A DNA stretch of 64,000 nt from assembly GCA_036785375.1 (NCBI GenBank), contig JAWMAR010000346.1:248001-312000 (forward strand), in the 5' to 3' direction. Positions 1 to 64,000 of this stretch are shown here, in pieces; the stretch's first letter is position 1, and each line of letters opens with the position of its first letter. A program made the translations under genes and the position numbers. Source of the stretch: Leucoraja ocellata (lineage: Eukaryota). The notes beneath the pieces were generated by a model. It saw nothing but the letters and a program-made list of their open reading frames with translations. It was not told the DNA's origin and did no database searches.

Positions 1-90
1 CAGGTCAGTCAATATTCTCTTACCAGGAAGAGTCTAGGTGAATTCAGGTTAATGATACCCAATGAAAACGGAAACAAACAATGATCCCCA

Positions 91-173
91 GGGACACAAA
101 AATGCTGGAGAAACTCAGTGGGTGCAGCAGCATCTATGGAGCGAAGGAATAGGCAACGTTTCGGGCCGAAACT
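91..173 (-). mobile_element. Short PLE-tail insertion, subfamily B
   Basis: 12-bp TSD caatgatcccca at 79-90 and 174-185. Confidence 0.8.
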
Positions 174-807
174 CAATGATCCCCATTTCGACAGAGCATT
201 CAATGTATCAAAAAACCTCCAGATGCTTGATAGGTGCATGATAACCAAAGGCTTAGTCACTAGAACAGCTTGTAAGAAGCAGACCAAGATTAATAGCCCT
301 GAGATGACATAGTCCAGTTGAAGGTAAAGCTGTCGAACAATGAAGGGATTCAATGCAGCAACCAAAAATAGGCCACAATTAAAAGAGTGCAGATTGATCA
401 AGCTGCTTATAGTGCTGTAATTAATTATCAACATTCGAAAGGCTAAGACAATGGAAGATTTTGAAAAGGAGCTTGAGACTCGCTCCTTTTAAAGAATAAT
501 GTGTTTTTTGTGATTAGTTCTAAAATAGATGGCCTCACATTTTCACATAATACTGCGATTACCAATTTTCTGCCCACTCAACCCATCTATTATCCTTTAG
601 CAGGCTCCTTGTGTCCTCTTCACACCTACCTATCCATGTATCATCAGCAGATTTGGCTGCAGTGCTGCACTTCATCCCTTCATCTAAATCACTAATGTAG
701 TTTATAACTGATTAAAGCCCAGCACAGTGGCTGTGGTACCACACAGGTTACTGATGGCAATCCTAAAGTGACACATTTATACAAACTTTGGCTCTTTCTA
801 AGAGTAA

Positions 808-1021
808 TGCCCGTCACACTTAGAAAACCTGAACGGAAACCTCTGGAGACTTTGCGCCCCACCCAAGGTTTCCGTGCGGTTCCCGGAGGTTTTTGTCATT
901 CTCCCTACCTGCTTCCACTACCTGCAACCACCTGCAACCACCTGGAACCGCACGGAAACCTTGGGTGGGGCGCAAAGTCTCCAGAGGTTTCCGTTCAGGT
1001 TTCCTAAGTGGGACAGGGGCA
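808..1021. mobile_element. Palindromic MITE (CCTGTCCCAC-end family, Harbinger-like)
   Basis: About 75-bp inverted arms ending aagtgggacaggggca, flanked by taa / tta. Confidence 0.78.
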
Positions 1022-1761
1022 TTAGCCTTTCAACTACACATGCCGAGATATTACTCACAAGCACAGAAACCATCTTGTTCTGTAATCTTTGATGTTGCTC
1101 CTTGTACAATGCTTTCTGGAAATCCTCCCAATTATTGCAAATAAACTTAAAAGGGTCACAAACTAAAGAAAAACTCTGAAATAACCAGGATCATGAAGAG
1201 ACAGTTAGGAAGCTTGGTTTATTTATATAATATGGTTGACTTGTCAAATTAATGATTTACCAGGCACAGTTTCATTAGAGTTATGATGCATATAAAAATA
1301 TCCCATATATAAATAAGAGGCTGGAGTCTGGAATTTATCATCCTCGGGACAGTTGTAAATTCATTGAATTTAAATGTAATGAATGAACACCGCCTCCAGT
1401 CATGAGCTGTTTATGACTAATATTAGTTACTGTCTTGGCCACCGTTTAATTGGAGACACAAGAGACTGCAGATGTTGGAATCTGGTGTGAAGAAAGCATG
1501 CTGGAGGAACTCAGCAGGTCAAGCAGCATCTATGGGGGAAACACGATGATCAACATTCTGGTTATAACCTGCTTTAAGTCCTGATGCAGGATTTCAATCC
1601 AAAATGGACATCACCATTTTGCCTCCACAGATACTGCATAACCTGTTGAGTGCCTCAAGCAGTCTGTTTTTTTTTGTATGAGTTTAGTTTAGTTTTGAGT
1701 GTAGTTTTGAGATACAGCATGGAAACAGGCCCTTCAGCCCACCGAGTCTGTGCCGGTCAAC

Positions 1762-2739: not shown

Positions 2740-3203
2740 GGATACGAAGCGGAGTTCACGCGACGATCGCGCTAAGTTCGCGCGTGACGTCATTTGCGTC
2801 ATGCTTACCAATCAGCTGGGCAGCAGGCAGGCCGACTAAATTTGGGCGTTGCACAGTGTCGGGCGGTGACATCATCACGCAACGCCACGCCGGGTAGTGA
2901 CGTCATCGCACAACACCACGCGCTAGGCATACGCCATCAAGACGCTGCGTACGCCGTCAAGACGCTGCCGTCAAGACACTGCGTACGACCGCAATGCGCC
3001 TGCGTGCCGACAGGCCGTTGGCACCCGAAGATTTCGGCCCCTGCAAGAATTTCGGAGCCCCACGCGATGTTGGGACCAGCCCCGTACAACTCCGCGCTTC
3101 TAAGTGGGTCCGGCCCCGTGCGGCCATACGGTGCCCGTACGTCTCAAGCGACCACGAGGTCGCGTAATTTGCGAGCCAAGGTCGCGTAAGTGGGACAGGC
3201 CCT
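2740..3203. mobile_element. CpG-rich MITE fragment of the same terminal family
   Basis: Ends aagtgggacaggccct-tta. The left end was not found. Confidence 0.65.
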
Positions 3204-3404
3204 TTATTCTCTACCGAAAGTAGACACAAGATGATGGAGTAACTCAGCGGGACAGGCAATATATCTGGATAGAAGGAGTGGATGATGTTTCAGGGTGAGA
3301 CCAGAAATGCTCTTGTCCTTCTGAGTTACTACAACATTTTGTGTCTGTATTCAGTGTATAACCAGCATCTACAGTTCCTTCCTACACACTTTTAAATGTC
3401 TATA

Positions 3405-5704: not shown

Positions 5705-6787
5705 GAAAGACTAGTAGAGGTGGACTAGCTTGGAACTTTCAGTGTTGTAATATTTTATGTGTAGGAAGGAACTGCAGATGCTGGTTTAAACCAGAGAAAG
5801 ACACAAAATGCTGGAGTAACTTAGCGGGACAGGCAGCATCTCTGGAGTGAAGACTTTCTCGCTGAGTTACTCCAGTATTTTGTAATATTTTAAGATTATT
5901 ATACAGAGGACAGTGAAACTCCCCAAGATCCAACTCTGACTATAAAGGAGGACTGTATCTAACCCTGCGAGGAAGGAGGTTGAAGCAGGTTTTCTCCATC
6001 AGCATTGCTGGAGTGGATGGGCAGAATGTTCTGAACTGAACTGAACATCATCCCCAGTGATGGATGGCACTTGCTCTGCAAATTCCACGTCTGAAATTTG
6101 GTTCAGAATGTGAAAATCAAGCAACATACAGCCACCATCACACTGCTCTATGGAGCGCAACAACATCTGGCCACAGCTGGCTCATGTGCAAAAAAATAAA
6201 CTGCTGCGGGAATTCAGTGGGTCAGGCAGCATTTGTAGAGGAAAATGGACAGACAACAGTTTGAATCGGGATCCTTGTTCAGTACAATGTTCCCCTCAGA
6301 CCTATCTCAATCCTCATGCATCAGTAGGTGTTTTGTGACAGCTGACAAGAAAATAGTATTTTTTACAAAGGGGACCATCGCTGCCCAGCCTGGCCAACGT
6401 GATTACCTCTCACAACCTTCTCATGCTTGACCATCCCACTTCCACCCATGCCCACGGCATGGTTTGTCCAAAGCATCAGAGGTAAACCATTTTGTTTTAA
6501 GACAAGATTGTCTATTTAGTTGTACGTAACCGTGGTCAGGCAGGTGTGGTTCTCACAAAGCCTCACAATCTTCAACCACATACTTGAAGTCTGTTTCTCC
6601 TTCTCCCTCTGCAAATAAATGTTTCTTCAAATGCAAAGCCGTCACAACATAAATAACATTTGAAAATCCAACGAAGGAGGGGGGTATGAATTAGTAATTC
6701 AAAGCTTCAAATTATTGTCCGTCGCTTTCCAATATTACTAATTGTTAAGTAACTCCCTCACCAGCACACAATTTTAAAGGAGTCTTA

Positions 6788-8982: not shown

Positions 8983-10098
8983 GAAACATAGAAACATAGA
9001 AACATAGAAATTAGGTGCAGGAGTAGGCCATTCGGCCCTTCGAGCCTGCACCGCCATTTAATATGATCATGGCTGATCATCCAACTCAGTATCCCGTACC
9101 TGCCTTCTCTCCATACCCTCTGATCCCCTTGGCCACAAGGGCCACATCTAACTCCCTCTTAAATATAGCCAATGAACTGGCCTCAACTACCCTCTGTGGC
9201 AGAGAGTTCCAGAGATTCACCACTCTCTGTGTGAAAAAAGTTCTCCTCATCTCGGTTTTAAAGGATTTCCCCCTTATCCTTAAGCTGTAACCCCTTGTCC
9301 TGGACTTCCCCAACATCGGGAACAATCTTCCTGCATCTAGCCTGTCCAACCCCTTAAGAATTTTGTAAGTTTCTATAAGATCCCCTCTCAATCTCCTAAA
9401 TTCTAGAGAGTATAAACCAAGTCTATCCAGTCTTTCTTCATAAGACAGTCCTGACATCCCAGGAATCAGTCTGGTGAACCTTCTCTGCACTCCCTCTATG
9501 GCAATAATGTCCTTCCTCCGATTTGGAGACCAAAACTGCACGCAATACTCCAGGTGTGGTCTCACCAAGACCCTGTACAACTGCAGTAGAACCTCCCTGC
9601 TCCTATACTCAAATCCTCTTGCTATGAAAGCCAACATACCATTCGCTTTCTTTACTGCCTGCTGCACCTGCATGCCTACCTTCAATGACTGGTGTACCAT
9701 GACACCCAAGTCTCGCTGCATCTCCCCCTTTCCCAATCGGCCACCGTTTAGATAATAATCTGCTTTCCCGTTTTTGCCACCAAAATGGATAACCTCACAT
9801 TTATCCACATTAAACTGCATCTGCCAAACATTTGCCTACTCACCCAGCCTATCCAAGTCACCTTGCAGTCTCCTAGCATCCTCCTCACACCTAACACTGC
9901 CCCCCAGCTTAGTGTCATCCGCAAACTTGGAGATATTGCCTTCAATTCCCTCATCCAGATCATTAATATATATTGTAAATAGCTGGGGTCCCAGTACTGA
10001 GCCTTGCGGTACCCCACTAGTCACTGCCTGCCATTGTGAAAAGGACCCGTTTACTCCTACTCTTTGCTTCCTGTTTGCCAGCTAGTTCTCTATCCACA
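8983..10098 (-). mobile_element. Young 5'-truncated CR1 LINE (RT C-terminus, 3' UTR, microsatellite tail)
   Basis: [49 protein letters not shown]. One in-frame stop at 9836-9838. (TTTCTATG)n tail at 8983-9010. Confidence 0.97.
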
Positions 10099-10474
10099 TG
10101 ACATCGCACTTCCCCATGTTAAACTTCCATTGTACCAAGTTTTCACCCATCCTCTCAACCCATCTGTGTTGAGTTGTTGGGTCCAAATATCCTCATTGGA
10201 ATAGTTTACTCTGGGTGGGTAGCCACAACCGGTGGTCAGTTCAATTAGAAACACGTCTAGCCAAGTTTATTGATGACGCAAACATAGGTGGCATTTACGA
10301 TGATATTAATTGTTTGAGATTGATTAAGTGAATGGTAAGAAATGTGACAAATCTGATTTTAATGAAAAAGTGACCATCTTTGGGCAGAAAAATCAAACAT
10401 GCAAATTAATTTGCAAATATTGAAAAGGAGGTTCACGGATATAAGGAATCATTTGCATTTGAATTTGAATCAGT

Positions 10475-10502
10475 CTGAAGAAGGGTCTCGACCCGAAACG
10501 TC
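10475..10502 (+). ncRNA. Minimal hammerhead ribozyme core (PLE-type), subfamily A consensus copy
   Basis: CTGAAGA-A-GGGTC(TC)GACCC-GAAA-CG-TC: CUGANGA box, stem II hairpin, GAAA box, minimal stem III and GUC site. Confidence 0.7.
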
Positions 10503-11267
10503 ACCTATTCCTTTTCTCCAGAGATGCTGTCTGACCCTCTGAGTTACTCCAGCTTTTTGTGTCTGTCCTAGAAACCATTTTGGTCTTGGGTAAATAAAGA
10601 AATTAATCAAGAAAGGTTATGACGCCATATCAATGCTGCAACAAACCCTGTTGAGACTAGGGCTGGAGTATTGGGTTTTCAGCCGTGAACCTGAGGAGGT
10701 ATGGGATGTGTACAACACGGGTTCTCACGCACATCACTTCCACTGTAGGGGCTAAATTATGAAGAGAGATGAAACAATCCCTAGATTTTTGAATAGTTCG
10801 AGCATGATTTGATCAAAGATTGTATGAGGCTAAGGGTCATTACCAGGGTACATTGAAAGAGACAATTCCTGTTGGGTGGAGAACATAGCTCAAAAAGCAT
10901 CTGCAATTTATTGTGCAACTTAAGTCCCGGAGATATGGTTTAAAACTTTGAATTGTCCTTTCAGAAGTAAGTAACAGATTTAGTTTTCTAAATTTAACTA
11001 GCACTAGCTTTAAATTGTAATTTTCAAATTGCACCTACACTAAATGAATTGGTCATTTTAAAATCTGTGGATGATGTACTTTAACACCTTAAAAATCGGA
11101 AAGAATCTGACATGTAAATTTATCTCTCAAAGCACCCATAACCATATTGAAATGGCAGATCAAGCTGGAGGTTCCTTGCGCAAGTCACTAACTTTTGCAC
11201 AGACAAGTTTATTATCAGTCTCTTTCTCACAGCAGCTTCTTAATGCTGAAAATTCATCATTTAAGTT

Positions 11268-12662: not shown

Positions 12663-13035
12663 CCCTCTTTACATCATGCTCTCAAGTCAGTACGACTAGA
12701 ATCTAATCACTGCTGCTCTTAACATCTACTTTGCAAAATCTTTGACTACTGGTAATTAAGGACATTGAGAGCACATTAAAACAATGACTATATGTATGAA
12801 GGAGCATTTCAATAGCAGGATATGTTATGTCAGCAACATTTGTTTACTGAAGAATATCTGTTTTGCAAAGGGTGGGACCCAAAGCTAAAATGAAGATGTA
12901 CGATGGGTCTGTATCTGGGTCTGTATCAGAGTTATTGAGGCTGCAAAGGCACCTAAACACCTTTTTGTAGCAGCAGCAACCAAAAAATGACCTCCAACTC
13001 TCGGCATACTTTGCTCCACGTCAAACCTTAACTGA

Positions 13036-13147
13036 TGTTTAAGAAGGAACTGCAGATGCTGGAGAAGGGTTTCGGCCCGAAACATCGCCTATTTCCTTCG
13101 CTCCATAGATGCTGCTGCACCCGCTGAGTTTCTCCAGCGTTTTTGTG
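13036..13147. mobile_element. Short PLE-tail insertion, subfamily B, internally inverted
   Basis: aaaccttaactgatgttt is duplicated at 13023-13040 and 13148-13165. The extreme 3' end is on minus, the remainder on plus. Confidence 0.8.
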
Positions 13148-14289
13148 AAACCTTAACTGATGTTTGTCATTTCCTTTGTTTATTCCAGCCTCTGCCAGTT
13201 TGGAAAATCACTTTAATTGTATGTTGAAAATATTCTGTTAACCATGCCAAGAAAATCTGCAGGCTGGTTGTTTCTGAGCTGAGTTCCAGAGCGCTTATTA
13301 ATTTACTGGGTGGTCAAAATGAATAAATTGCTGCGTTTACTGCACCATGGGAGCACCTCTACTCAGGGCCTTAATGACCTCACTGTAAGGAGATCCAAGA
13401 GATTACATCAGGCCAACATCATTAGTCCTTCCACTCATGCTCTGCAGCAACAATCCTTTAACACCATCAGCCCTCTGAGAACCAAAACATCCAACATCAA
13501 ATCAGCCTCACAGGTGACACATGACATTGAGAATTCTTTGTGAATGTGCCTAATAGAATAGGTAAGGAGAAACCAGTAGATCAGGAGCACTTGAATTTCC
13601 AGTAGGTTTTCAAATAAAGTTCTATTCAAAAGGTTGGTGCACAAGGTTAGAAGGTCCACAATTCCTAGTAATGCACCAACATGCATTGGCAATTAGTTTA
13701 GGAAAGAACTGCAGATGCTGGTTTACACCGAAGATAAACACAAGAAGCTGGAGTAACTCAGCGGGTCAGGCAGCGTCTCTGGAGAAAACAAATAGATGAC
13801 CTCTCGCGTCGAGACCCTTCTTCAGGCTAAGCGTCAGGGGAGAGGGAAACTAGAGATATGAAAAGGTACAAAGTGTAGCGAGAGAGGGTGTTGCAGAACT
13901 CTCATTGGAGAGAGGAAGGGGAACTTCTTCAAAGTTGGCATACCTTGAGGAGATTCTGCACTGGATTGGGACAAATGTGTAGGAAGAAACTGGACTGAAA
14001 GCAAAGATTGGAATAAGTAGATCATTCTCAAGATGGCAAAATATAATTAATGGAGACCTCACACCAGGGGTGGGAAGAAGTGGAATTATTTACAAAGAAG
14101 AATCAAGACGATTCCTGACATTAACTGTTAATTAAATACTTGGAATGGAGTTTTGAAATTGGGAAGAAGAAATCGCCTGGTGGCAGAAGATGTAAAACAC
14201 CATCAAAGATATTGGCCTCTAAACACTGCAAACTCAGCCCTCACCTACATAAAGCCAGCGGCTGTAGCAGCACCCAGGTCTTGGCCAGT

Positions 14290-14317
14290 CTGAAGAAGGG
14301 TTTCGGCCCGAAACGTC
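14290..14317 (+). ncRNA. Minimal hammerhead ribozyme core, subfamily B
   Basis: CTGAAGA-A-GGGTT(TC)GGCCC-GAAA-CG-TC. Stem II is retained through G-U pairs. Confidence 0.68.
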
Positions 14318-15252
14318 GCCTATTTCATTCACTCCATAGATGCTGCTACACCCGCTGAGTTTCTCCAGCAATTTTGTGTACCTTGGCAAAACATGACTTG
14401 TTTGGACATCAAATTGATTTCAGACGATTACTGTGTGAGTGGTTGGGGTCCTGGGGGTGATTGTGAGAGAGCAGTGATGTTTATGTGATTTCATCTTTCA
14501 TCGATTTTGTGGTTTTTGACTGTTATTGGATTAATTTCCCTCCTGGGATAAATAACGTTTTATCGTATCGTATCGTATGCACAGTGGATGAGAAATGCAT
14601 TTAAATCCATATAAATGAAGGGTTAAAATCGGCATCTTCCAGTCTATACCTTTATTAATCAATTATTAGAACAACCCGACCCAAAATGTCACCCTTCCTT
14701 CTCTCCAGAGATGCTGCCTGTCTCGATGAGTTACTCCAGCATTTTGTGTCTATCTTCGGTATAAACCAGCATCTGCAGTTAGTTCCTACACACTCGATCC
14801 TGGAAACACTTGGAATGGTCCAGTTGATAATGTAGTTATTGAGCCAAGCAGATGGGAAACAGGCCCTGCGGCCCAACTTGCCCTTACGGACCAAGATGCT
14901 CCATCTAGGCTACCTGCCTGCATTTGGCCCATATACCTCTAAATCTTTCCTGTCCATGTACCTCTCCAATTATATTTTAAATGTTATTATAGTACATGCC
15001 TCCGCTGGCAGCTCGTTCCAAAAGATCCTCACCTTAATATTTAGGAGACACAGTCATTCATTGGCACAGTAGCAAAATGGAGTAGCAACATGATCTTTCT
15101 ACCGTGAAATCAACAACTGAATCTGTGGAGAAACTTGCATGAAGCAAGTCACGGTTTACAGCTGCGAATATTAGATCAGAACTTTTTCTACCTTTCAGAC
15201 ACAACATAAGGACGCAGCAGTACAAGGCAGTACACGGTTTACAGCTGCCTTG

Positions 15253-15608
15253 AGGGCCTGTCCCACCAGCATGCGACAAGCGCGACCAAACTGGAAGCGG
15301 GGGCTGCGTGGAGGTCGAGTGAGTGACGTGAAGTTCGAGTGACGTCCGCGGGAAGTTCGCGCGTGACGTACGGCGTCGAGACGCTGCGCACGCCCGTCGA
15401 AGTGGCTGCGGGCCGGCAGGCCGATGCGCGCGTAATTTTTGAACACAGTCAGTTTTTCGGAGCTCCACGCGATGTCGGGGCCAGCTACGCACAACTCCAT
15501 ACGGCTCCGGCGATCAAAGTGGGACCGGCCCCGCGAGGCCGTATGGCTCAAGCAACCACGTTAGGTTGTGCTTGACGCATGGAGTCGCACGCTCATGGGG
15601 CAGGCCCT
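15253..15608. mobile_element. CpG-rich MITE of the same terminal family
   Basis: agggcctgtcccac ... atggggcaggccct. Internal similarity to 2740-3203 (aagttcgcgcgtgacgt, cacgcgatgt, gggacc). Confidence 0.72.
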
Positions 15609-16149
15609 TTACAGCAACTCTACCAGAGTTCTAACGTTCTCCCCGTGACCGCATGGGTTTCCTCCGAGATCTTTGGTTTCCTCCCACACTCTAAAGGGCC
15701 TGTCGCACTTGGGCCGACATTTACACGGCAGGCCGCACAGCCGTCTGGAGCGCGATGCTGAGATCTTCCAACAATTCTGTCTTTTATTTTACATGTAGAG
15801 GCAGGGGCAGCGCAAACATGTGATGCAGAGAAAGTCTCTGAGAGAAGACACTGGCAAGTGGTCAAGAACACAGGGCCCACCAGGATCCCAGGATGGAGTG
15901 ATTGCTGGTCCTGTCAAATAGAAACGGCACAATGATAAATGGCTTTCAGCACTTGTGCCACAAAAATGATATCAGCACCACTGGATACTGATGCCTGTGA
16001 GAGTCAAGAACAAAGAATAATGATGCTGAACATCCACTGGATGCTGCTGCCCGTGTTAGCCGACAAAAACCGCGGCGCTCAGTCAGTGTCAAGAGTGAAT
16101 TCCGAGGTTATCAGCAACTCACAGCTCCGACTGTGCCACCTGGAGCAGC

Positions 16150-16635: not shown

Positions 16636-16925
16636 GTGTTTAAGAAGGAACTGCAGATGCTGGAAAATCGAAGGTACACAAAAATGCTGGAGAAACTCAG
16701 CGGGTGCAGCAGCATCTATGGAGCAAAGGAAATAGGCAAGGTTTTGGGCCGAAACCCTTCTTCAGACTTATGGGGGGTGGGGGGACGAGGAGAAGAAAGG
16801 AAAAAGGAGGAGGAGCCCGAGGAGACAGCAAGGGCTAACAAAATTGGAAGAATTCAATGTTCATGCCCCCAGGATGCAGACTCCCCAAGCGGAATATGAG
16901 GTTCTGTTCCTCAAATTTCCGGTGT
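16636..16925 (-). mobile_element. PLE 3' fragment, subfamily B
   Basis: Minus strand encodes EEQNLIFRLGSLHPGGMNIEF, followed by the subfamily-B hammerhead tail. ttataatgtg is duplicated on both flanks. Confidence 0.8.
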
Positions 16926-17929: not shown

Positions 17930-18490
17930 TGTATTTATGAGCCCAGGTAAAACCACCTGGTCACCCCATTACAGGAGGAATGTGAAAGCTTTGCAGATAA
18001 GGTTTACCAGGCCTGAAGAAGGATCTCGACCTGAAATGTTACCCATTCCTTCTCTCCAGAGATGCTGACTGACCCGCTGAGTTACTCCAGCTTTTTGTGT
18101 CTATCTTTACCAGGTAGTTTCCTGGATTGGACGTTATTAGCTAAAAGGAGAGGGTGGATAAACTTGAATTATTTTCTCTGGAGCACTGAAGGGTACGGAG
18201 AAACCTAATCAAACGTTGTAAAATTATCAGAGGCACAGACAGGGTGAAAATGTCATATACTAGAGAGCATAGATTTAAGGTGAGAGGGGGGGGGGGGATG
18301 TAAAAGAGATATGCAGGGCAGGTTCATTTACACAGGGAGCAGTGTCAAGTTTAGTGTTGGAAGCAGATCAGCAGTAGTGTTAAAGACACTTTTAGATCGG
18401 CACATGAATATGCATGGAGAGGGGATATGAATCACATGTACACAGGCAGGATTTATTTATTTGATGTGCTTCATCCAGTGCTGTGCTATT
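17930..18490 (+). mobile_element. Old CR1 3' fragment with nested PLE-tail copy (about 18012-18105)
   Basis: Decayed RT C-terminus. tttaccagg is duplicated around the nested insertion. Confidence 0.7.
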
Positions 18491-32386: not shown

Positions 32387-32389
32387 CTA

Positions 32390-35281: not shown

Positions 35282-35289
35282 GTGTGGCT

Positions 35290-43984: not shown

Positions 43985-44173
43985 GTGTTTAAGAAGGAAC
44001 TGCAGATGCTGGAAAATCGAAGGTACACAAAAATGCTGGAGAAACTCATCGGGTGCAGCAGCATCTATGGAGCGAAGGAAATAGGCAACGTTTCGGGCCG
44101 AAACGTTGCCTATTTCCTTCGCTCCATAGATGCTGCTGCACCCGCTGAGTTTCTCCAGCATTTTTGTGTACCT
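43985..44173. mobile_element. Fold-back PLE-tail insertion, subfamily B (near-perfect 157-bp palindrome)
   Basis: Palindrome 44019-44175 centred on tttcgggccgaaa. 15-bp TSD tccctggtttattaa at 43970-43984 and 44174-44188. Confidence 0.88.
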
Positions 44174-44899
44174 TCCCTGGTTTATTAACATGGATTAATA
44201 TACAGGCCAAAACTGTGGAATTTACGATCTATCATTTTAAATTGTTGATATTATGAGAGAATTTAATATTTGTAGCATTAAGCTTCTGCCTATTGCTCAT
44301 TATAAATGTATCATGACAAGTGCCCTATTACTTCCAACCTACACATTAAAGTGCTAAACATATTGATGGCATGAGAGAACATCCACATTCATTTGCTAAT
44401 TTACACACAAGATAATTGCAGATGCTTAACTGCTTTTCCGTATGCCTTGTGCAGTGTTTCTGCTTTATATGCTAACATAAAGTGCTTAAGGTGCTTTGGA
44501 GAAAGAAGCACATGGAAATAAATATACCAATATTGCTGTGGGTATGTGCGATTTTGTAGTATTACAATGGATTCTTTTCTGTTGTCAGGTATAAGTGCAG
44601 AATCATTTCGTTGGGTGTAGCATGAGGAAGGTCTTTTAATCCTTGTGGCTTTCTAGGTAAACCTCGTGCCCAGCCAGTCAAAAAAAAAAAGATCTTGTCT
44701 CCTGGCACAGATATCATCACATTAATGATGCAATTTACACATCATTGCACATCAACAATGCATTGCCAAGCTTGAGATCATTAAAAACAGCCCTCCTTGA
44801 ATGAAGACATGGTTGCTTTTTGAGCACAGCTCTGTGGGTACTGGCTGGCCAGGTTACAGCTTCAACGGCAAGGATGGAAAATGAATTAGTCAAACACCT

Positions 44900-46450: not shown

Positions 46451-47534
46451 AATCCAAACATATATGCTTCATCAAAACATTGTGAAGTTCGTTAACTAAA
46501 TTAATCTTCCAGCCTAACTTCAGCCAATGTAGTCCATGCCAGACTCATTAATTAGAGCTAATTCCAAGCTCATTAGGCCAATGTGCATTGCAGGCATGTG
46601 TACTGTTGTTAATATAATTACTTCATCAGTGCCAGCAACATCCCTTTAGTGCTTGGGTACTCCAAGAGAAGATCTGCGGGATGACGGTCGTTTATTTAGT
46701 TTTAAAATGTTCTTTATTTAAAATATACATCTTCAGAGCTCCTTAAATTATAGTTATGGCACTCATGGGGAAAATACCGTTGATAACCCACTGGGACTTG
46801 GGATGTCTTGAAGAGCGAAATGCTGGGAACATTTAGCAGATTAGGCAGAATCTGTGGAAATAGAAACAGCTAACATTTCAAGTTACCATCTGAAATATTG
46901 GCTCTCTATCAATGATGTTGCCTTTCCGCCCGCAGTCTGGAGCGGTATTTTCTGCTTTTTCTATCAAATTTTCCGCATCTGCTTTGTGATTTTCAAGACT
47001 TGGAACTTATTTGACAATTAGTCCCTGGAACCATATTGTGGCGATGCAGATCTACTTGGCATTATGCAACATTAAAACAAACGGACAATTTTATCTAAAG
47101 CAAAAGTCTTTAAACTCTACCAAGCTGCCGTGCGATACAAGCACAGCTGGCACAGACATGTAATCCTTTAGGAGTTAACATATTGTTACCTTAGAGAGCC
47201 TTTAGGCAAATATTCTCTTTTAACTTCCTTAACCCTTAGGATGTTACAAAATAAACCAGGATTGCCTAGCCAACGTGAAAAACACTAATCCACTCCCGCT
47301 GTGCCTGATGCATTCCAGACATCCATCTTCTTCCTCTTGCCTCCAGATACATACAGCAAACTTCTGCTTCAACCATTCATTCCCAGAACTGACTGAACCT
47401 CATCTGCTTAGAGGCATCAATACTACATGAGCACCTTTACCCCAGTTATTCAACTACTTCTCTCCAAACGCATCTGTTCACACCCTAGTCTCTGAAACCA
47501 CTTCTCATTAAACTGCAAACCAAATATCAATTGA

Positions 47535-48610
47535 CATCTATTAGAAACCTACTGACTCCCACAGCTATGTCGACTATGCTTCTTCCCAGTTTACTTCCTG
47601 CACAGACTCTTTCCCAATTCATCCGTTAACGCCGCATCTGCGCCCAAGATGAGGTGTTCCATACCAGGACATCCGAGGGATTCCCCTCTTCCATCATAGA
47701 TGAGGCCCTCACACATGTCTCCTCGGTACCCCACAGCTCTACTCTTGCTCCCCCTCCCCGCAGTCACAACAGGGACAAGACTTTCACCCCATCAGCCGTC
47801 GCATACAGCACATAATCCTCCAACATCTTCAACACCTCCAACAGGATCCCACCTGTAGCCACATCTTCCCATCTCCACCTTCCGCAGAGACTATTTCCCC
47901 CGCAACTCCCAGGTTAACTCATCCTTTCCCACCCTAACCACCAAGGTACCTTCCCCAACAACTGCAAGAGATGCAACACCTGTCCCTATACCTCCTCCCT
48001 CGACTCTGTCCAGGGATCCCGACAGTCCTTTCAGGTTAGGCAGAGGTTCACTTGCACCTCCTCCAACCTCATCTACTGTATCCACTGTTCCATGTGTGGA
48101 CTCCGATACATCGGGGAGACCAAATGTAGACTGTGATCATTTCACTGAACACCTTCGCTCAGTACACGTAAATCTACCAGATCTCCCAGTTGCCAAACAT
48201 TTTAACTCCACTTCCCATTCCCACATTGACCTTTATGTCCTGGGCCTCCTCCATTGTAAGAGTGTGGCCAAACGCAAATTGGAGGAACAGCACCTTGTAT
48301 TTTGCTTGGGCAGCTACAACCCAGTGGCATGATAATAGATGTTTAAGAAGGAACTGCAGATGCTGGAAAATCGAAGGTACACAAAAAAGCTGGAGAAACT
48401 CAGTGGGTGCAGCAACATCTATGGATTTCCTTCGCTCCATAGATGCTGCTGCACTGGCATGATAATAGATCTCTCTAACTTCAAGTAACCCTGGTATTCT
48501 CTCTCTCTCTATCCCTCCCCATCCTAGTCGATGTACAAGTTTCACCTTCGTCCAGGTGAGTTTTATTTTCTGTAACTCATTGGCACCTAGCCCACACCTA
48601 ACAATGGCCT
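47535..48610 (+). mobile_element. Penelope-like element (Neptune-type), degenerate RT C-terminus plus GIY-YIG endonuclease
   Basis: Translatable remnants KPTDSHSY, CKRCNTCPY (linker Zn motif), FTCTSSNLIYCIHCSMCGLRYIGETK, HFTEHLRSV, PVAKHFNS and RKLEEQHLVFCLG. Frameshifted. Confidence 0.9.
48341..48454. mobile_element. Subfamily B tail inserted into the older PLE endonuclease fragment
   Basis: 16-bp TSD tggcatgataatagat at 48325-48340 and 48455-48470. Confidence 0.82.
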
Positions 48611-50139: not shown

Positions 50140-50614
50140 TAGACATAGACATAGAAATTAGGTGCAGGAGTAGGCCATTTGGCCCTTCGAGCCTGCAATT
50201 CAATATGATCATGGCTGATCATCCAACTCAGTATCCCGTACCTGCCTTCTCTCCATACCCTCTGATCCCCTTAGCCACAAGGACCTCATCTAACTCCCTC
50301 TTAAATATAGCCAATGAACTGGCCTCAACCACCCTCTGTGGCAGAGAGTTCCAGAGATTCACCACTCTCTGTGTGAAAAAAGTTCTTCTCATCTCGGTTT
50401 TAAAGGATTTCCCCCTTATCCTTAAGCTGTGACCCCTTGTCCTGGACTTCCCCAACATCGAGAGCAATCTTCCTGCATCTAGCCTGTCCAACCCCTTAAG
50501 AATTCTGTAAGTTCCTATAAGATCCCCCCTCAATCTCCTAAATTCTAGAGAGTACAAGCTGAGTCTATCCAGTCTTTCTTCATAAGACAGTCCTGACATC
50601 CCAGGAATCAGTCT
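50140..50614 (-). mobile_element. Young CR1 3' end, same subfamily as 8983-10098
   Basis: ORF 50228..50629 is nearly identical to the C-terminus of ORF 9086..9820. Confidence 0.95.
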
Positions 50615-50802
50615 GCCTAAAGTGTCCATTGCCTAAACTGCACTTGCCTAAAGTGTCCATTCCTTCTTATATCTTACATATCGACACGCGGACCATTCTG
50701 CCCATCGGGTCTACGTCAGCTTCCAGTGGAGAAAATCTATTAGTTCCATTTCCCTCCTCATTTCTCTGCCTGTTCATGCCGAACATCTTCTCTTAGATTA
50801 AA

Positions 50803-50960
50803 TGTGTAGGAAGGAACTGCAGATGCTGATTTACTCTGAAGATAGACACAAAATGCTGGAGTAACTCAGCGGGACAGGGACTTAATGGGCGACGTCACCT
50901 ATTCCTTCTCTCCAGAGATGCTGCTTGTCCCGCTGAGTTTGTCCAGCATTTTGGGTCTAT
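50803..50960. mobile_element. Fold-back PLE-tail insertion, subfamily A
   Basis: Inverted arms with imperfect TSD tcttctcttNgattaa. Confidence 0.72.
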
Positions 50961-51807
50961 CTTCTCTTTGATTAATTTTGTCTTTAACCGACACTAAGTG
51001 GTAATTTACAGCCACCATCTAACCTTGCAGCACATCTTTAGGAAGTGGGAAGAAGCTGGGGTACTAGAAGGGAAACACACACGGTCACAGAGAGAATGTG
51101 AAAACATTGCACACACAGCACCAACGGCCAGACTTGAACTCAGAACCCGGAGCAGTGAGGTAGCCACTTTGACAGTATCCACAGTTAGAATCAAACTAAG
51201 GTACCTGGAGCTCTGTGGCTATGCTGTCAGTCGTCCTACAGTTGAATCGTGTCGTTCCTGCTATCTCATTACATAACGTTTCACATCTAACCTTAATTTA
51301 CTGCAGTCACATGAGAACACAGCTTCATATTGACAGAATTGAGCACAATGTGATTTTTCCGCTGTTTGTGCCTCCTTTGGGCTTCCTAATGCTGACCCGA
51401 TAGAGATCAACTAATTTGACAACAGCTTGGTTCCAACCAAATTCCATTCTGAGCCGTGTATCCGAGTGCAGACTTAATCAGAACAGTGAGTTTCCATTTA
51501 CAAACTCTGTTTCACTGTCATGATGAGGAACGATGGAGATTGATTCTCTCATTCATAGCATTCAGTTCATTCCAGATATTTCCAAAACACACACATGTAC
51601 CAATAAAAATTATACCACTTAAGTGGTGAAGATGGATTTTAAGTACACAAATTGTATGGAATTATCTGCTACATGCGGCAGCTTTATCGGAAACTATTCT
51701 GCTTTTATTGAGAGAATGGTCCCTAATTTACAGATCTTCCATTGATTGATGAGATTGATTCTGTGTAAATTGTCTATTGGTTTATAGTGTGCTGTTTGGT
51801 GATAAAC

Positions 51808-54857: not shown

Positions 54858-55640
54858 AGACAATGGACAATAGACAAAAGGTGCAGGAGTAGGCCATTCG
54901 GCCCTTCGAGCCAGCAGCGCCATTGACCTCCACTGCCTTCTGAGGCAGAAAATTTCACAGATTCACAACTCACTGTGTGAAAAAGTTATTCTTCATCTCC
55001 GTTCTAAATTGCTTATCCCTTATTCGTAAACTGTGGCCCCTAGTTCTGGACTCCCCCAACATCAGAACATGTTTCCTGCATCTACCCTGCAAACCATTAA
55101 TAATCTTATATGTTTCAAAAAGATACCCTCTCATCCTTCTAAAATCCAGCCACTCCATTCTATCAACATATGACAGTCCCGCCATCCCGGGAATTAACCC
55201 TGTGACCCTGCGCTGTACTCATTCAATAGCAAAAATGTCCTTCCTTAAACTTGGACACCAAAACTGTACACAATACTCCAGGTGTGGTCTCACTAGGGTC
55301 CTGTACAACTGCAGAAGGAATTCTTTGCTCTTATACTCAACTCCTCTTGTTAGAAAAGCCAACATGCCATTCGCTTTCTTCACTGCCTGCTGTACCTGCA
55401 TGCTTACTTTCAGTGACTGATGAACAAGGACCCCCCAAATCTCGTTGTACTTCGCCTTTTCCCAACTTGGCATTCAGATATTAATCTGCCTTCATGTTTT
55501 TGCCACCAAAGCGGATAACCTCACATTTCATCTGCCATGCATTTGCCCACTCACCCAACCTGTCCAAGTCACTCTGCATCCTCATAGCATCCTCCTCACA
55601 GTTCACACTGCCAGCTTTGCGTCATCTTCAAATTTGCTAA
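54858..55640 (-). mobile_element. CR1 3' fragment
   Basis: ORFs 55219..55473 and 54970..55185 are CR1 RT C-terminal. Confidence 0.92.
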
Positions 55641-55854
55641 TCAAATGCTTTCTGAAAGCTTGGGACATCTCATTGCGTATCCTCAACCAATGCACATTGA
55701 TGATGTGGAATCCCGTACATGGATTTGCTCATGTCCTCAAGCCATAGTATTGTTCAATCAGATATTATGCACTCAAACATGTGCAACATACATTAGTGAT
55801 TACAGCAGTGATCAATGATACTCAACCAAGACGGTTCATAAATGTCCATGGCCA

Positions 55855-56020
55855 GAGTGAGCACCACCTGTAATTGGAGGAGCAGCACCTCATATTCCGC
55901 TTGGGCAGTCTGCACCCTAGCGGCATAAACATTGAATTCTCCAATTTCCGGTAGCCCTTGCTGTCTCGTCTCCTCTCCTTCTCAGCTCTCCCTCAGCCCT
56001 TGGGCTCATCCACTTCCTTT
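55855..56020 (+). mobile_element. PLE GIY-YIG C-terminal fragment
   Basis: LEEQHLIFRLGSLHPSGINIEFSNFR*. Confidence 0.75.
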
Positions 56021-57840: not shown

Positions 57841-57929
57841 CAAACATTCGTAGTGTTCTTCAAGAGGCTAAAAATGGTTCGGGTCAAGACCTTTCTTCAG
57901 ACCAGCATCTGCAGTTCTTTCCTACAAAG

Positions 57930-58912
57930 CAGGAACGCGTCCCCTGGTTGCAGGTGGGTGTAGTGGGGGGCTGGTGGGGGGGGGGGGGGGGGGAAGCGGC
58001 CTGCAGCTGGGGGAGAGGGATAGCTTCAGGCGGGGTCTGTCAGGGGCCGAGGGGGGAGGGGGGAAGCGTCCTGCAGCCAGGGCAGGGCAGGCTTCTGGCG
58101 GGGACTGTAGAGTGTCGCAAGGCAGGACGGGTCACCCCTGGAGGGAGGGCCTCTCCAGCGCTCACGGTGAATGACGAGTGGTGGTGGCTGCCGGCGCCCG
58201 AAGCCCTGCGGCCGCACGCTACACGGTAGGGAGGGTGGTGCCACGGGCCGAGGCCAGGGACTGGGCCTGGGCTGGAGCTGGAGTGAGGGCCGAGCCCGAG
58301 GCTTGGGATAGGGCCGTGACCGAGGCTGAGAAAGAAACCGCTGCCGGAACCAAGGACGAGCCTGCATCCTGGGTCGGGGACGAGTCTTGAGATGAAGTCG
58401 GGGCCTGGACTGGGCTGGGCGAGCCTGGTGCTGGAGTTGGCGCAAGGGCCGAGCACGAGGCTTGGGATGGGGCCGTGACTGAGGCTGAGAAAGAAGCCGC
58501 CGCTGGGTCTGAGGCCAAGGACGAGCTCGGAGATGAAGTCGGGGCCTGCACTGGAGTCCAGGTGGCGGCCGAGCTGATGGCTGGAGTCTACAGCCAGGGC
58601 CAGGCTGTGTACATAAACCAGGCCAAGTTCTCGGCCCTGGGGCTGCTCTACTACCTGGGTAGATGCTGGGGCAGAGAATGGGAGTGGGGAGAGGAGGATG
58701 AGGGAAATGAGGAGGAGGGAGATGGGGTGGTAGAGGGACATGGAGGGTAGTGGAGGAGGGAGATGGGGGTGGAGGAGGGAGATGGGGAATATTGGAATAT
58801 AGCATTGGGGGAAACGGGTGAGTGGTGGAATATTGCGTTGGGGAACAGGTTGTGTTGGGGGGGGACCAGGCCTCCTGTGTGACAGGGACCCAATGGGTCC
58901 CACTTAGTCTAG
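57930..58912 (+). mobile_element. Probable non-autonomous Helitron, GC-rich
   Basis: 3' signature GGGACCC-aat-GGGTCCC hairpin (58885-58901), 7 nt, then CTAG (58909-58912) followed by T. Abrupt GC shift. 5' end not defined. Confidence 0.65.
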
Positions 58913-60185
58913 TATATATATAAATGTGAGTATGTGTGTATATATACCCACACTGAACTTTTTTTCCTCGTTTAGTACATTGTTTACAGTGTACTATGTT
59001 GCCTTATGCTGTTCCTGTGTGCTGCTGCAAGAATTTCATTGTTCTACCTGCGACATATGACACTAAAACACTCTTGACTCTTCCACAGAGGCTGAGTTTT
59101 TCCACCATTTTCTATTATACTTAGGATTTCCAACATCTGCAGTTTTTGTTCCAGTTGCGTGAGCTCTGCCTTGAAGCAATACATTGCACAGGAAATATAT
59201 TACGACTACAAATCTGATATGGAAGTGGGAGGGAGGGCAGCTGAAATAATCACATTTAACAGCTCCATACGGCAGTACTTGCATTATGCTGATGTCATGC
59301 AGCAACAATGAGGAGCAACCAACACTGTCTCCTTTTCATTAGTTCAGTTCAAGTCTCGTTCTGTGGTGGAAGTAGCATTAACTAGAACCATATGGTTGTT
59401 TTCACAGATTGTGCTGCAAGTTTTATTTGGTCAGAAGAATGATGGAAACATTGATGAATGTCGACGACACACCCTTTTTGTCTTGTTGTTTAGGCATCTT
59501 TCTCCACGGCAACCATAACCCGCAGGTCACAAGGCAGTTGAAGCCAGCTCAAAAACAGCTTTTCATGTGTATATCTTTCATTCTCAATTGCTTCAAGAGA
59601 ATGAACATGGTGCAATACGTTATCCCAAAACTTCACTGTGGGAAGACAGATGTGCCAACAACATAGTACTGAATCAACAGCTTTTGTCAGCATAAGTGGA
59701 AATACTCTGGGGGAAGAGTACCTGTGAAAACATTTCAGTTTTTTTATCGACTTGTGGACAGACGAATGTGGCAGATGATGGATCTCGCTGGAAGAAAAGT
59801 ACATTGACGGAATATAATAAATAAAAGGCAAAAAGTTTTTTTTGAAAATAGTTTCGCGGAATGTTCATAAAAATAGAGATAGACAGAAAAATCTGTTCTT
59901 GTACAAGAGGCTTTGAATAGTAACATCACTATCTGACTTCTGGTGGAAAACAATCATTTTATCAAAGTTATTTTAAGCATGGGATGCTTAGCTAAAAATG
60001 TGCCAACTTCAAAGGAACTTTGTAAAGGAATCTCCTTGGAATTTTCAGATAGTCGTGCATTCCATTGGCAGTATATAAAAGATGTGTGGGAAGGAACTGC
60101 AGATGCTGGTTTAAACCGAAGGCAGACACAAAATGCTGCAGTAACTCAGCGGGACAGGTAGCATCTCTGGAGAGAAGGAATAGGT

Positions 60186-60213
60186 GACGTTTCGGGTCGA
60201 GACCCTTCTTCAG
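60186..60213 (-). ncRNA. Minimal hammerhead ribozyme core, subfamily A, sense to GAS7 pre-mRNA
   Basis: Reverse complement is CTGAAGAAGGGTCTCGACCCGAAACGTC, within the PLE tail copy at about 60083-60235. Confidence 0.68.
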
Positions 60214-60283
60214 ACTGAAACGTCACCTATTCTCCAGGGATGCAGCATATAAAAGAGTTAGACATGTTACACTTTATCCTTGA

Positions 60284-60545
60284 GGTGGAACAGCAGTGCA
60301 GCTGGTAGAGCTGTTGCCTCACACCCTGTGACGCAGGTTCGATTCTGACCTCAGGTGTTGCATAGAGTTTGCATGTTCTTCCAGGTGCTCTGGTTTCCCG
60401 CCACGTCCCAAAGACTTGCGGGTTGGTAGGTTCATTGGCCACTATAAATTGCTTCTAGTGTGTGGGTGGGGGGTGTCTGTCTAAAAAATTGGATCATGAT
60501 GGTCGACATGAACTCAGTGGGCCGAAGGGCCTGTTTCCATGCTAT
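60284..60545 (+). mobile_element. HE1-like SINE
   Basis: B box ggttcgattc, V domain, tail gggccgaagggcctgtttcc. Confidence 0.78.
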
Positions 60546-61011
60546 ACAATTATGATACTTCATGACAGATTATCCAGAACAATGAAAAATTATAATAATC
60601 AGTGGTTGTTTTGCTAGGGAAATGGTCAGAAAATCCGTGATGATTAGTAAACCTCTGCAGATTGTGGAAATGGAAGACAGTAGAATTTACTAGAAACAGT
60701 CAGACGAAGGATCTGTGACCTGAAACATTGACCTGTTTCTCATCCCATAGATGTGGCTGACTTGCTGAGTACAGCCAGCATTTTCTATTTTCCATCAAAA
60801 AGACTTCTCATGAAGGTCCTCCAGTGTCATGGCGTAGGGAGTTGGGTCTAGAAATTGGATCATATGAGCGAGTGTGCCAGGCACGTTAGGAGTACTACAT
60901 GTGTAGGAGGGAACTGCAGATGCGGGTTAAACTGATATAGACACAAAAAGCTGGAATAAATTAGTGAGTATGGCAACATCTCTGGAGAAAAGGAATAGGT
61001 GACGTTTAAGG

Positions 61012-61292
61012 CAGTGGTTCCCAACCTTTTTTTGGCCATTCCCCACCTAATCACCTCTAAAATCCTGATGCCCCCCCCCCCCCCCCCATGTGGTGATATA
61101 TAATTCTTAAATAAAAAATTATTTACTCAAAATAACATCTGAAACATAAACTACATATGTTTACCTGATGGAAAATCCCAAAAAATAAAAATCGAAAATT
61201 TGGACCCAGACCTCCTCAGTCACGCTCAATTGCCCCCCTTAAAAATCAAATTGCCCTCCTGTGGGGCGTACGCCCCACGTTGGGAACCACTG
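61012..61292. mobile_element. hAT (Charlie-like) MITE inserted into a PLE fold-back copy
   Basis: TIRs cagtggttcccaac / gttgggaaccactg. 8-bp TSD gtttaagg / gttcaggg. Confidence 0.88.
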
Positions 61293-64000
61293 GTTCAGGG
61301 TCTATTCCTTTTCTGCAGAGGTGCTGTCTGACCCGCTGAGTTACTCCAGCTTTTTGTGTCTATCTCCAAATTAAGAGTGCTGTTAGCCCCAATACGGACT
61401 GTGCCCTCTCATTCCAGATAGTTGTGCACCACATCCCACAGAAGCTACAGTCTACTGAATGTCTTCTGAATGAACCTACTTGAAGGTCCAACACAAAATT
61501 GTTTTGTGCCCAAGCACAGGATGCTTCAGGCAGTCAGTCTGTGCTCAGTTTAGTCAGTGGCATAGCAATAAAACAACAGTCCTTCAGGGGATCCCTGGTA
61601 GCTGCCAACAAAATAAAAATGTACTGGGTCCCAGTGAAGGAAACAGAGGTGTATTCAGGGGTGTAACCTGAACTGACAGTTTGCGGACAAGCAGTAATTC
61701 AATTTCTTAAATGCACATTGCTAATTGAGAAGCAATTGGGGCCAGGGGGCAGAGTCGTGTTCCAATTATAGGAGAAAAACGAGGCCAAATAAAATTCCAT
61801 CTGCACGTATTCCTTCAGCAGTCATATCAGATTATTTTTAATATGTGTAGCAGGAGTGAATTATGGTGTAGTGTGAATGCCAAATCAACCAACTGAAGGT
61901 AGATATGGAACCAGAGAGATGCTGCATAGGATAAATACAGGGTCCGTGCATTCATCCTGTTTGGTGGGGAGGGGGGGGGGGGGGGGGGGGGGGGTTATTA
62001 AAATCAAGGGAACAAGAAGAGCAAAGCATTCAGTCCCTGGAGCTCATTTTAACTTTCAACAAGATTTTACCTGATTTTACTATGGATGGCCACCTTTTAA
62101 CTATAACTGATTAGCAAAAATCCATGAATCCTGGATTTAAGATGAATTAAACTGGCATTGGTTGTCATTTAGTGACCAAGCCACAAATCTATTTTCATTT
62201 TTAACCTCTGAAAAGCCCAGTCGAACTGTGGCCCTTCTCCTAAATCAAAGCAAGTTTCCTTCTATCACTTTCTCCTAATAGCTGAAGACAACAATCTAAT
62301 TCTTCCTTAACCTGGTGTGTATAATCTACCCCTATAATTTAATCCTTCGAGCCAGCACAGCCATGATCACAATGAATGGCGGTGCTGGCTCGAAGGGCCG
62401 AATGGCCTCCTCCTGCACCTATTTTCTATGTTTCTATAGATAGATAGATAGATCCTTTATTGTCATTCAGACCTTTCGGTCTGAACGAAATTAGGCTACA
62501 TTCTGGTAAAATGATTCTGTAATCCTACATGTGTGGTGCTCAGAGACTTCCTGGTGTTATCTAACCAGGATTTTGCGTTGTTGAAGTTGTCACCACGATT
62601 TTTCAGATTGTTTGGGTGTAAAGACCATCCATTTACTGGTATAGAAAAGTCAGAACAACTAATGACATTTTAACGATCGATGGACTCAACCACAACTAAA
62701 CCATATCATTTCTGACCACCACTAATTTTAGTTTGACACTAGTTAAACTGCACTCATCACAATTATATGTCACATTAAAATTGCCTTTGGAAGCTAGTTC
62801 AAGAAGATGGGATCAGGAGCAGACACGTTGCATTAGCAGAAAGAGAGAGATTTGGGGTGTGTGGAGAAGTATTTTGTTTGGGGCAATGCAGGTTCATCCT
62901 ATCCTGAACCATACCACCACAACCATAGAGAAGTCCTGAACTACTATTCATCTCATTGGTGACCCTTGGACTATCCTTGATCGCACTTTGCTGGCTTTAC
63001 CTTGCACTAAACGTTATTCCCTCATCATTTATCTGCACACTGTAAATGGCTTATAATCATGTATTGTCTTTCTGCTGACTGGATAGCACACAAGAAAAGC
63101 TTTTCACAGTACCACAGTACACGTGACAATAAACTAAACTGAAAGGGTCAGTTGTCACCTGCCCCATAAACTAGACAAACTCCACAATGATGACAAGCAG
63201 AAAAGACAACGTTGTTCTGTAGCAACAAGACAAATGCAAGCCTGGGGTAAAACACTTCATCTTCCACTTTGCAGCCTCCGTCAAACTCAATACTGAATTC
63301 TCCAGTTGGCTAACAAACTATTTATTTCTACCTACACCAGAACTTGCCATTTCTGTTTGCCATCGTTTCTATTTTTGGACACTGTCCTCTTTGGCAATGG
63401 AGGAAAATATATACCTGGACAGGTGTGTATCCACATAAATCAGGTCATATACCATGTCCAGCCAGGCCTTTCATCCACTCCTCTACTGAAGAAATAAAAT
63501 GCCTGCACTTGCATGCAGCCTTGCAATTTCCTCAGCACATCTCCGAAGATCGTTCCACTGTTTCCACCAAAGTTGGTGTGTAAGTAATGAAACTTTCCTG
63601 CACACAAATGATAAGTGATGGCAATCACTGTTCACCCATCACAGTCACCTGTGCAACCCCTGTTCAGCTAGAAAAAGCAACAAGGAAGTAGAATGTGCCG
63701 CAAACTGATTAAACCAGTCTAAATAAATCAAAGGAAGCTTATTCAGGAGCTCTTTAAAGGTGTAAATATTACATACATCTTTGTTGTGAGTCCATCAGAA
63801 AAGTCAGCCTCAATGTCAGAATGCACCAAGCTGCTCACTTGGATAGATGGAGGAACAACACATCATAATTTGCATGGGCAGCATACAACCCAATTTCTCT
63901 AACTTTGTGACCCTCGCTTTCCCTCTCTCTCCATCCCTCCAGTTGTCACTGTCCTCCTGATCAATTTTACTGATTGTATGCCTCGTTGTCACCTTCCCCT

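Follow-up and report, generated by a model that had tools for sequence, protein, structure and literature searches.

The GAS7 gene of the skate Leucoraja ocellata is crowded with small units that carry a hammerhead ribozyme motif, which raises the question of whether they constitute a new ribozyme-driven element or the remains of a known one. The sequence analyzed is a single 64-kb stretch (assembly GCA_036785375.1, contig JAWMAR010000346.1, positions 248,001 to 312,000 of the forward strand; 64,000 nucleotides, referred to here as the window), and it contains no full-length element. The population is real and dense and was correctly tied to Penelope-like elements (PLEs) by a first-pass annotation of this DNA, but it is not a new ribozyme element; the units are probably the dead and very short remains of integration by an autonomous Neptune-type PLE. 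Three features are noteworthy: a hammerhead with a 2-bp stem I, coupled inverted pairs with one tail, and a 5' boundary that is position specific.

The motif CTGAnGA...GAAAC occurs 12 times in the window, and the eight copies that the first pass had singled out as best were all recovered in place by this pattern search. Five of these (10475, 14290, 23096, 30250, and 60186) are fully intact, a stem II mismatch is present in 41052 and 4482, and 29872 lacks 13 nt immediately after the core. An nhmmer profile built from 13 copies has 65 matches in the window and none in the reversed window, and the matches merge into 48 loci spanning 6,576 bp, or 10.4% of the non-N bases. Removal of six matches with open reading frame (ORF) sequence only and eight old or weak arms, with two insertion-split pieces joined as one arm, leaves a curated set of 50 young arms, organized as 22 solo insertions and 14 head-to-head pairs (36 insertions). 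This amounts to an insertion roughly every 1.5 kb, and most insertions are without any ORF sequence and have the look of short interspersed nuclear elements (SINEs) or miniature transposable elements with inverted repeats (MITEs). There are two young subfamilies, A and B, with differences at 16 of the 101 positions that follow the motif, as well as older ones. The initial count of more than 30 copies is correct for the unit but not for hammerheads, since just 22 of the 48 arms contain the entire core; the head-to-head pairs, two alternative 3' ends, and 2-bp stem I were not part of that description. Older, more diverged relatives of the unit are located at 1460-1669, 6194-6282, and 60697-60792; two older relatives have an A-U pair in stem II in place of the G-C pair of A and B, and the one at 1571 may formerly have had a 3-bp stem I.

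The units are the 3' ends, or pseudo-long terminal repeat (pLTR) fragments, of a Neptune-type endonuclease-positive (EN+) PLE, downstream of its GIY-YIG ORF. A GIY-YIG-like peptide encoded at 48150-48329 matches skate and stingray proteins with 57 to 66% identity, and these proteins have weak Pfam GIY-YIG matches; full-length relatives of 650 to 1,010 residues contain a reverse transcriptase (RT) domain, and 3 of 21 are also listed with GIY-YIG. With a stingray PLE protein, tblastn finds 47512-48323(+), the longest match (RT thumb, cysteine linker, and endonuclease), and six shorter C-terminal pieces at 22882-22980(+), 16841-16918(-), 30475-30552(+), 28287-28478(-), 55838-55951(+), and 63814-63906(+). 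Pfam recognizes none of three degenerate PLE frames from the window, and the RT-EN linker is of the CxxxxCxxC type, with CKRCNTC in the window remnant aligned to CKRNKCYTC of P0002. This cysteine motif marks Neptune and Nematis (PMC8557442), and the Neptune label is a putative one, drawn from the linker and not from an RT tree. The PLE origin proposed in the first pass is thus supported by the GIY-YIG C terminus, the cysteine linker, and homologues with RT plus GIY-YIG. Its statement that the unit directly follows a GIY-YIG C terminus at 22895, 16636, and 30478 is correct as to the link but not as to adjacency, because in these three of the six C-terminal pieces a pyrimidine-rich spacer of about 70 to 280 nt leads into the hammerhead. 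Subfamily A is tied to the ORF by the copy at 28195-28478, in which a GIY-YIG C terminus and an A 3' end are joined.

The 3' ends of the 50 arms are bimodal. Positions in the unit are numbered from C3, the first hammerhead core base (+1), which places the predicted cleavage site between +28 and +29. On this scale 24 arms end in the body (+86 to +103), 22 in a tail (at least +120), and 4 elsewhere, and the two end positions are about 37 nt apart, the difference being an optional tail. Target-site duplications (TSDs) with a score of at least 8 are present at 16 of the 34 loci tested (7 of 20 solos and 9 of 14 pairs), compared with 7 of 500 mismatched flank pairs; they are 9 to 21 bp long with a composition of 68% AT, in agreement with the earlier claim that many short copies have TSDs of their own. 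The pairs share further features. Exactly one tail is present in 12 of 14 pairs and two tails in none (P = 0.012), both arms belong to the same subfamily in 14 of 14 (P = 3e-4), and nine non-consensus bases are common to paired arms where 3.3 are expected (P = 0.003). A single TSD encloses the whole pair in 9 of 14, and in 7 of 11 one-tail pairs each arm holds sequence that is absent from the other. Priming once on each strand, at a different site each time, would be the simplest account of the pairs. TSDs also appeared to be longer in pairs than in solos (P = 0.002), but the difference falls to P = 0.09 once overlap with the element ends is removed, and it is not claimed. Of the 22 tailed arms, 17 are on the minus strand, the sense strand of GAS7 (P = 0.017, one test among several), and tail-less arms lean toward the plus strand (19 of 28), a bias that could reflect a transcription- or replication-linked asymmetry, or chance. 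A short inverted piece at 14247-14265, just 5' of the copy at 14286 and with an unusual base in common with it, may be a second arm whose priming took place outside the standard sites.

In the proposed mechanism the PLE RT/endonuclease would nick both DNA strands, as suggested by the biochemistry of the Anolis Poseidon element PAc (PMC11167929), and reverse transcription would begin internally on uncleaved RNA at either of two sites, about 65 and about 105 nt downstream of the cleavage site. Priming on one strand would give a solo copy, and priming on both, usually one per site, would give an inverted pair with a single tail; synthesis would mostly halt in, or just before, the hammerhead. The hammerhead would be inserted along with the rest because it adjoins the priming sites, cleavage would not define the unit, and the motif would decay once inserted. 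PAc cuts and extends the two DNA strands, initiates at two internal positions flanking the tail, and uses uncleaved RNA for insertion, with hammerhead cleavage dispensable in vitro (PMC11167929). Of the two alternatives in the first pass, extreme 5' truncations and a retrozyme-like RNA, short products of the autonomous PLE fit, the two 3' ends and the head-to-head pairs with one tail being the PLE signature.

Several points weigh against this reading. PAc is a Poseidon element with an ORF start in stem II, so the mechanism would be transferred by analogy, and the forward frames, all three, of an A copy and a B copy show no PAc-like ORF start inside the unit. One-tail pairs with common variants could also arise by self-priming on a fold-back with asymmetric deletion afterwards, a scheme near that of PMC3846280, or by gene conversion between arms. 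Core sites outside CpG are mutated in 6 of 252 cases compared with 135 of 2,671 downstream (P = 0.06), a hint of constraint. Finally, the 5' ends have a distribution that integration by internal priming does not predict alone: 18 of 48 lie within the 15 nt from -5 to +9, where 2.8 are expected.

These 5' ends were assigned by hand curation, with the two arms interrupted by later insertion excluded, and the cluster has P = 7e-11 for a bin that was picked after seeing the data. Ten other ends are at +10 to +24, none are at -6 to -16, ten are further upstream, and two are at +25 to +33 around the cleavage site (3.0 expected). The smooth 5'-truncation lengths that the first-pass annotation had set against independent mobilization are not seen, and the ends are sharply clustered at the upstream edge of the core and off the cleavage site. 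At each of four rates, simulated truncation with constant hazard reached the all-arm peak in 0 of 4,000 runs; a scan test restricted to solos gives P values up to 0.018, at the highest rate tried. The cluster accounts for 5 of 9 TSD-fixed solos, 13 of 35 ends fixed by a TSD or junction, 5 of 11 tail-started and 13 of 17 tail-less arms reaching +9, and 12 of 21 and 6 of 7 arms in the two subfamilies. Because it is common to both tail classes, it tracks position and not length. Drop-off according to length was considered as its cause and is disfavored, as tailed and tail-less arms stop at the same place; three tail-bearing pair arms nonetheless end at +30 to +45.

A tentative explanation for the boundary, which we think somewhat unlikely, is that the element RNA itself begins a few bases before the core, for example through a transcription start at TCAGT, a sequence which we take to fit the initiator consensus. 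Internal priming 95 or 135 nt from the RNA 5' end would then yield run-off complementary DNAs (cDNAs) of fixed length in place of random truncations, which is compatible with the integration products proposed above. Run-off is favored by the sharp edge, with no ends immediately upstream of the cluster, by the presence of the cluster in TSD-fixed solos, both tail classes, and both subfamilies, and by the failure of the simulation to match the all-arm peak; in part of the alignment of PMC4209133, TCA(G/T)T(C/T) is seen by eye just upstream in 6 of 44 PLE hammerheads. However, 10 of 48 arms reach beyond the cluster on its upstream side, which means that longer templates also served, the ends are scattered over 15 nt and tail off to +24, and the statistics involve post hoc bins, hand-curated ends, and the weaker solos-only scan. 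In Drosophila virilis the start site is about 120 nt upstream of the hammerhead, before an intron (PMC4209133, PMC2377424). A similar 5' pattern would also be produced by RT stalling at a folded or protein-bound hammerhead, or by endonuclease trimming. It is improbable that splicing sets the 5' boundary, with the AG located two bases before the core serving as a 3' splice site in the manner of D. virilis Penelope: a pyrimidine tract followed by YAG does precede the core in most long copies, and the D. virilis intron extends to the 5' side of helix I (PMC4209133), but copies ending at -1/+1 have no common first-exon sequence, the TSD lies within 1 to 2 bases where it fixes the end, and several copies end at -4/-5, within the putative intron.

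Run-off cDNAs of a "strong-stop"-like kind, together with a protein dimer that primes both strands in a coupled manner, one per site, form a combined scheme that we put forward with reserve, as one that probably does not hold in full. If true, an autonomous element mass-produces SINE- or MITE-like copies of its RNA 5' end without a non-autonomous partner, and batoid genomes preserve PLE integration intermediates as a very large fossil record, together with an overlooked hammerhead variant with a 2-bp stem. The formation of inverted and tailed PLE insertions and the role of the hammerhead are open questions (PMC8557442, PMC11167929), and a genome with an insertion roughly every 1.5 kb makes large-scale statistics on breakpoints feasible; the window data speak against a unit defined by cleavage and for coupled two-strand priming and a position-specific 5' boundary.

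Both the A and B consensus sequences have the complete invariant core (CUGAnGA / GAAA / UH), an additional A following A9, a stem II of 4 bp that begins with a G-C pair (G10.1-C11.1), and an ACGU palindrome, with 15.2-16.2 palindromic, that replaces stem III; with core and palindrome present, the first-pass description of a minimal type I hammerhead with a very short stem III stands. The published minimal-hammerhead descriptor, which specifies 3 to 7 bp for stem I and likewise for stem II and had been suggested as a check, has no match in the window. Relaxed to a 2-bp stem I it gives six matches compared with 0.01 in Markov-simulated sequence, and with stem I ignored it gives nine compared with 0.12 by chance; stem I is only 2 bp, including one U-A or U-G pair, in all six descriptor-positive copies. 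An Rfam scan of the window has no hammerhead family among 19 matches at E values of 10 or below. PMC4209133 itself accepts variants with a 2-bp stem I, and the skate motif is, by its sequence, a variant of the PLE minimal hammerhead and not a descriptor match, such that published descriptor searches undercount motifs of this type.

A and B are identical at all 11 invariant core bases, and the four differences between them inside the motif are all tolerated (a loop base, H17, and two U-A to U-G changes). The 4 bp of stem II are paired in 86% of cells, and stem pairs are kept in 83% with some two-sided changes, values reached by 17 to 37 of 500 shuffles; covariation over 22 copies is weak. Among the 26 copies spanning the motif, the core is kept in 12 and 5 are fully intact. 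G12, which is within a CpG, is mutated in 7 of 33 copies, compared with 31 of 153 at downstream CpG positions, and is therefore lost at the neutral CpG rate. In folding models the active hammerhead form is not favored: the predicted stem I pairing probability is at most 0.15 in every fold tried, and in the five intact copies the predicted active dimer lies 11 to 14 kcal/mol higher than the cofold minimum. The case for a stable, conserved folding of the unit is unconvincing, with z-scores of -2.2 to +1.9 over seven copies, and the core-spanning arms (13 sense and 9 antisense to GAS7) show no sense depletion. Source elements thus probably retained the hammerhead under some constraint and inserted copies decay, and self-cleavage by these copies looks doubtful given the 2-bp stem I and the neutral CpG loss of G12.

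The hammerhead may already have been catalytically dead in the A and B source elements, with a shrunken stem I and the motif kept as a relic or a protein-binding signal, although we consider this the less probable state of affairs. The 2-bp stem I has a U-A or U-G pair where the 2-bp cases in the PMC4209133 alignment have two G-C pairs, and the low predicted stem I pairing points the same way. In the other direction are the invariant bases shared by A and B, with four tolerated motif changes compared with 16 of 101 downstream, the retention of stem pairs with two-sided changes, and the behavior of the Anolis hammerhead, which cleaves only together with its protein (PMC11167929).

The first pass had also raised a retrozyme-like origin, in which a non-autonomous ribozyme-processed RNA (a non-LTR retrozyme) is excised by hammerhead dimers, circularized, and mobilized by a PLE in trans. 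The hammerhead core in the unit, the uniform small size, and the TSDs are in keeping with this, and retrozymes, proposed to be pLTR derived, are reported in tandem in one chondrichthyan genome (bioRxiv 10.64898/2026.07.22.740005). We nonetheless regard it as very unlikely. Retrozymes are defined as head-to-tail units with complete hammerheads (PMC7229834; bioRxiv 10.64898/2026.07.22.740005), but no array of the unit is present among 29 tandem-repeat rows of the window, the nearest same-strand descriptor-positive copies are 3,815 nt apart, the alignment has no circularly permuted copies, and the 5' ends are off the cleavage site. The hammerhead is minimal and not canonical, with its 2-bp stem I and an active dimer predicted to be energetically disfavored, and one-tail head-to-head pairs are PLE products. 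On the evidence of this window, the units are not members of the retrozymes. Inspection by eye for RNA polymerase III A and B boxes found none convincing in the unit.

PLEs were detected in all vertebrates surveyed (PMC4350176), and about 4,000 (coelacanth) and about 9,000 (Xenopus) dispersed solo minimal hammerheads from truncated PLEs are reported in PMC4209133. The skate motif resembles the metazoan PLE minimal hammerheads of Cervera and de la Pena 2014 (PMC4209133) in its CUGAnGA, extra base, G10.1-C11.1 pair, GAAAC-GU-H, and lack of a stem III loop, as well as in its pLTR location and its occurrence mostly as dispersed singles from truncated elements with some opposite-strand pairs; it differs in having a stem I of just 2 bp (G-C plus U-A or U-G) next to a 4-bp stem II, and their descriptor (stem I of at least 3 bp) therefore misses it. 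Neptune-clade EN+ PLEs (PMC3846280, PMC8557442) likewise have a C-terminal GIY-YIG, a cysteine linker, strong 5' truncation, and a head-to-head inverted pLTR copy with a 30- to 40-bp tail at one end and a TSD around all, whereas the skate copies are mostly ORF-free, dense, and clustered in their 5' ends at the upstream hammerhead edge. PAc (Frangieh et al. 2024, PMC11167929) is similar in its two 3' ends past the hammerhead, AC-rich tail end, AT-rich targets, and priming of both strands, but it belongs to a different clade and has its ORF start within stem II. Non-LTR retrozymes (PMC7229834; bioRxiv 10.64898/2026.07.22.740005) are also small, non-coding, hammerhead bearing, and pLTR related, and they occur in vertebrates including one chondrichthyan, but they form head-to-tail tandems, their hammerheads are for the most part canonical type I, and they have circular RNAs, unlike the solos and head-to-head pairs with a minimal motif seen here. 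No chondrichthyan names are present in one searched supplementary file or 44 alignment rows of PMC4209133, and the word Penelope is absent from the little skate genome paper. No literature report of a skate PLE hammerhead or 5' cluster was found, which is weak evidence as Repbase or Dfam may already catalogue the family. For annotation, the copies are PLE debris and not SINEs, MITEs, or microRNA hairpins, and two Rfam microRNA matches (31406-31537 and 44046-44147) are inverted pairs; a host function for the copies is not indicated.

Coordinates of representative copies, ORF-linked remnants, and GAS7 exons are given in Table 1. Pfam GAS7 linker matches are present in two minus-strand frames of the window, the best protein match is skate GAS7 (91% identity over a short stretch), and no GAS7 exons beyond the three listed were found in the window. 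The placement of the copies in GAS7 introns is correct between these minus-strand exons, and for 1-25213 and 36506-64000 the intron status is presumptive. At the 25214-25312 exon the open frame extends about 33 nt further upstream than the junction of skate isoform X2, which suggests an alternative acceptor.

Table 1. PLE-derived copies and GAS7 exons in the window
Coordinates	Strand	Feature
10470-10567	+	Solo A copy, no tail; intact hammerhead 10473-10504 (2-bp stem I, 4-bp stem II, ACGU palindrome)
14286-14384	+	Solo B copy; intact minimal hammerhead 14288-14319
30184-30311	-	Solo A copy, tail-less, GAS7 sense; intact hammerhead 30248-30279
18012-18107	+	Solo A copy; 9-bp TSD places 5' end at first core base
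28569-28699	-	Solo A copy, tailed; 12-bp TSD places 5' end at first core base
35868-35993	-	Solo B copy, tailed; 12-bp TSD places 5' end at first core base
89-172	-	Solo B copy; 5' end within stem II, 12-bp TSD
60082-60246		Head-to-head pair; intact hammerhead 60184-60215 (-) in tailed arm, second arm short and inverted, pair enclosed by 15-bp TSD
31340-31568		Head-to-head B pair with one tail; both arms enclosed by 13-bp TSD
43985-44175		Head-to-head B pair; palindrome centered on stem II, one tail, 15-bp TSD
13035-13147		Head-to-head B pair; one arm tail alone, other arm body, TSD of 18 exact bp
36189-36400		Head-to-head A pair; one tail, 15-bp TSD
50802-50964		Head-to-head A pair; one tail, 17-bp TSD
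5757-5883		Head-to-head A pair; one tail, 13-bp TSD
39745-39894		Head-to-head A pair; one tail, 13-bp TSD
60899-61368		Head-to-head A pair; interrupted by later insertion of ~290 bp with terminal inverted repeats
22881-23190	+	GIY-YIG C terminus, pyrimidine-rich spacer, intact hammerhead 23094-23125, tail-less 3' end
16636-16924	-	B copy; GIY-YIG C terminus, spacer, G12-mutated hammerhead, tail, 10-bp TSD
30469-30949	+	Older copy; GIY-YIG C terminus, ~280-nt spacer, decayed hammerhead, tail
28195-28478	-	GIY-YIG C terminus fused through internal deletion to tailed subfamily A 3' end
47512-48530	+	Frameshifted RT thumb, cysteine linker, and GIY-YIG; interrupted by B-type inverted pair 48340-48454
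36422-36505	-	GAS7 coding exon, borders approximate
28800-28890	-	GAS7 coding exon, borders approximate
25214-25312	-	GAS7 coding exon, borders approximate

The window also contains other elements. The segment at 21352-22163 has inverted repeats of 337 nt, 97% complementary and 138 nt apart, and no relation to the PLE unit, and related GC-rich elements with short terminal inverted repeats are located at 810-1017, ~2740-3205, and ~15250-15610, the first a near-perfect palindrome giving a spurious microRNA match. Insertions of ~290 to 330 bp with terminal inverted repeats and a MITE-like form are at 61012-61300, where a PLE pair is split, and at 40428-40760. A C-terminal fragment of a Tc1/mariner transposase (Pfam DDE_3) and its terminal region are at 35273-35845, and the 3' fragment of a long interspersed nuclear element (LINE) at 42700-43430, presumably of the L2 group, has a Pfam ALKBH8_N match and a 6-bp repeat at its end. 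Truncated LINE 3' ends on the minus strand, which we take to be CR1-like, are at 8983-10095 (ending in an 8-bp repeat), 31860-32400, 50140-50632, and 54870-55600. A GC-rich block at 58026-58900, with no Pfam match, has internal repeats and long minus-strand open frames.

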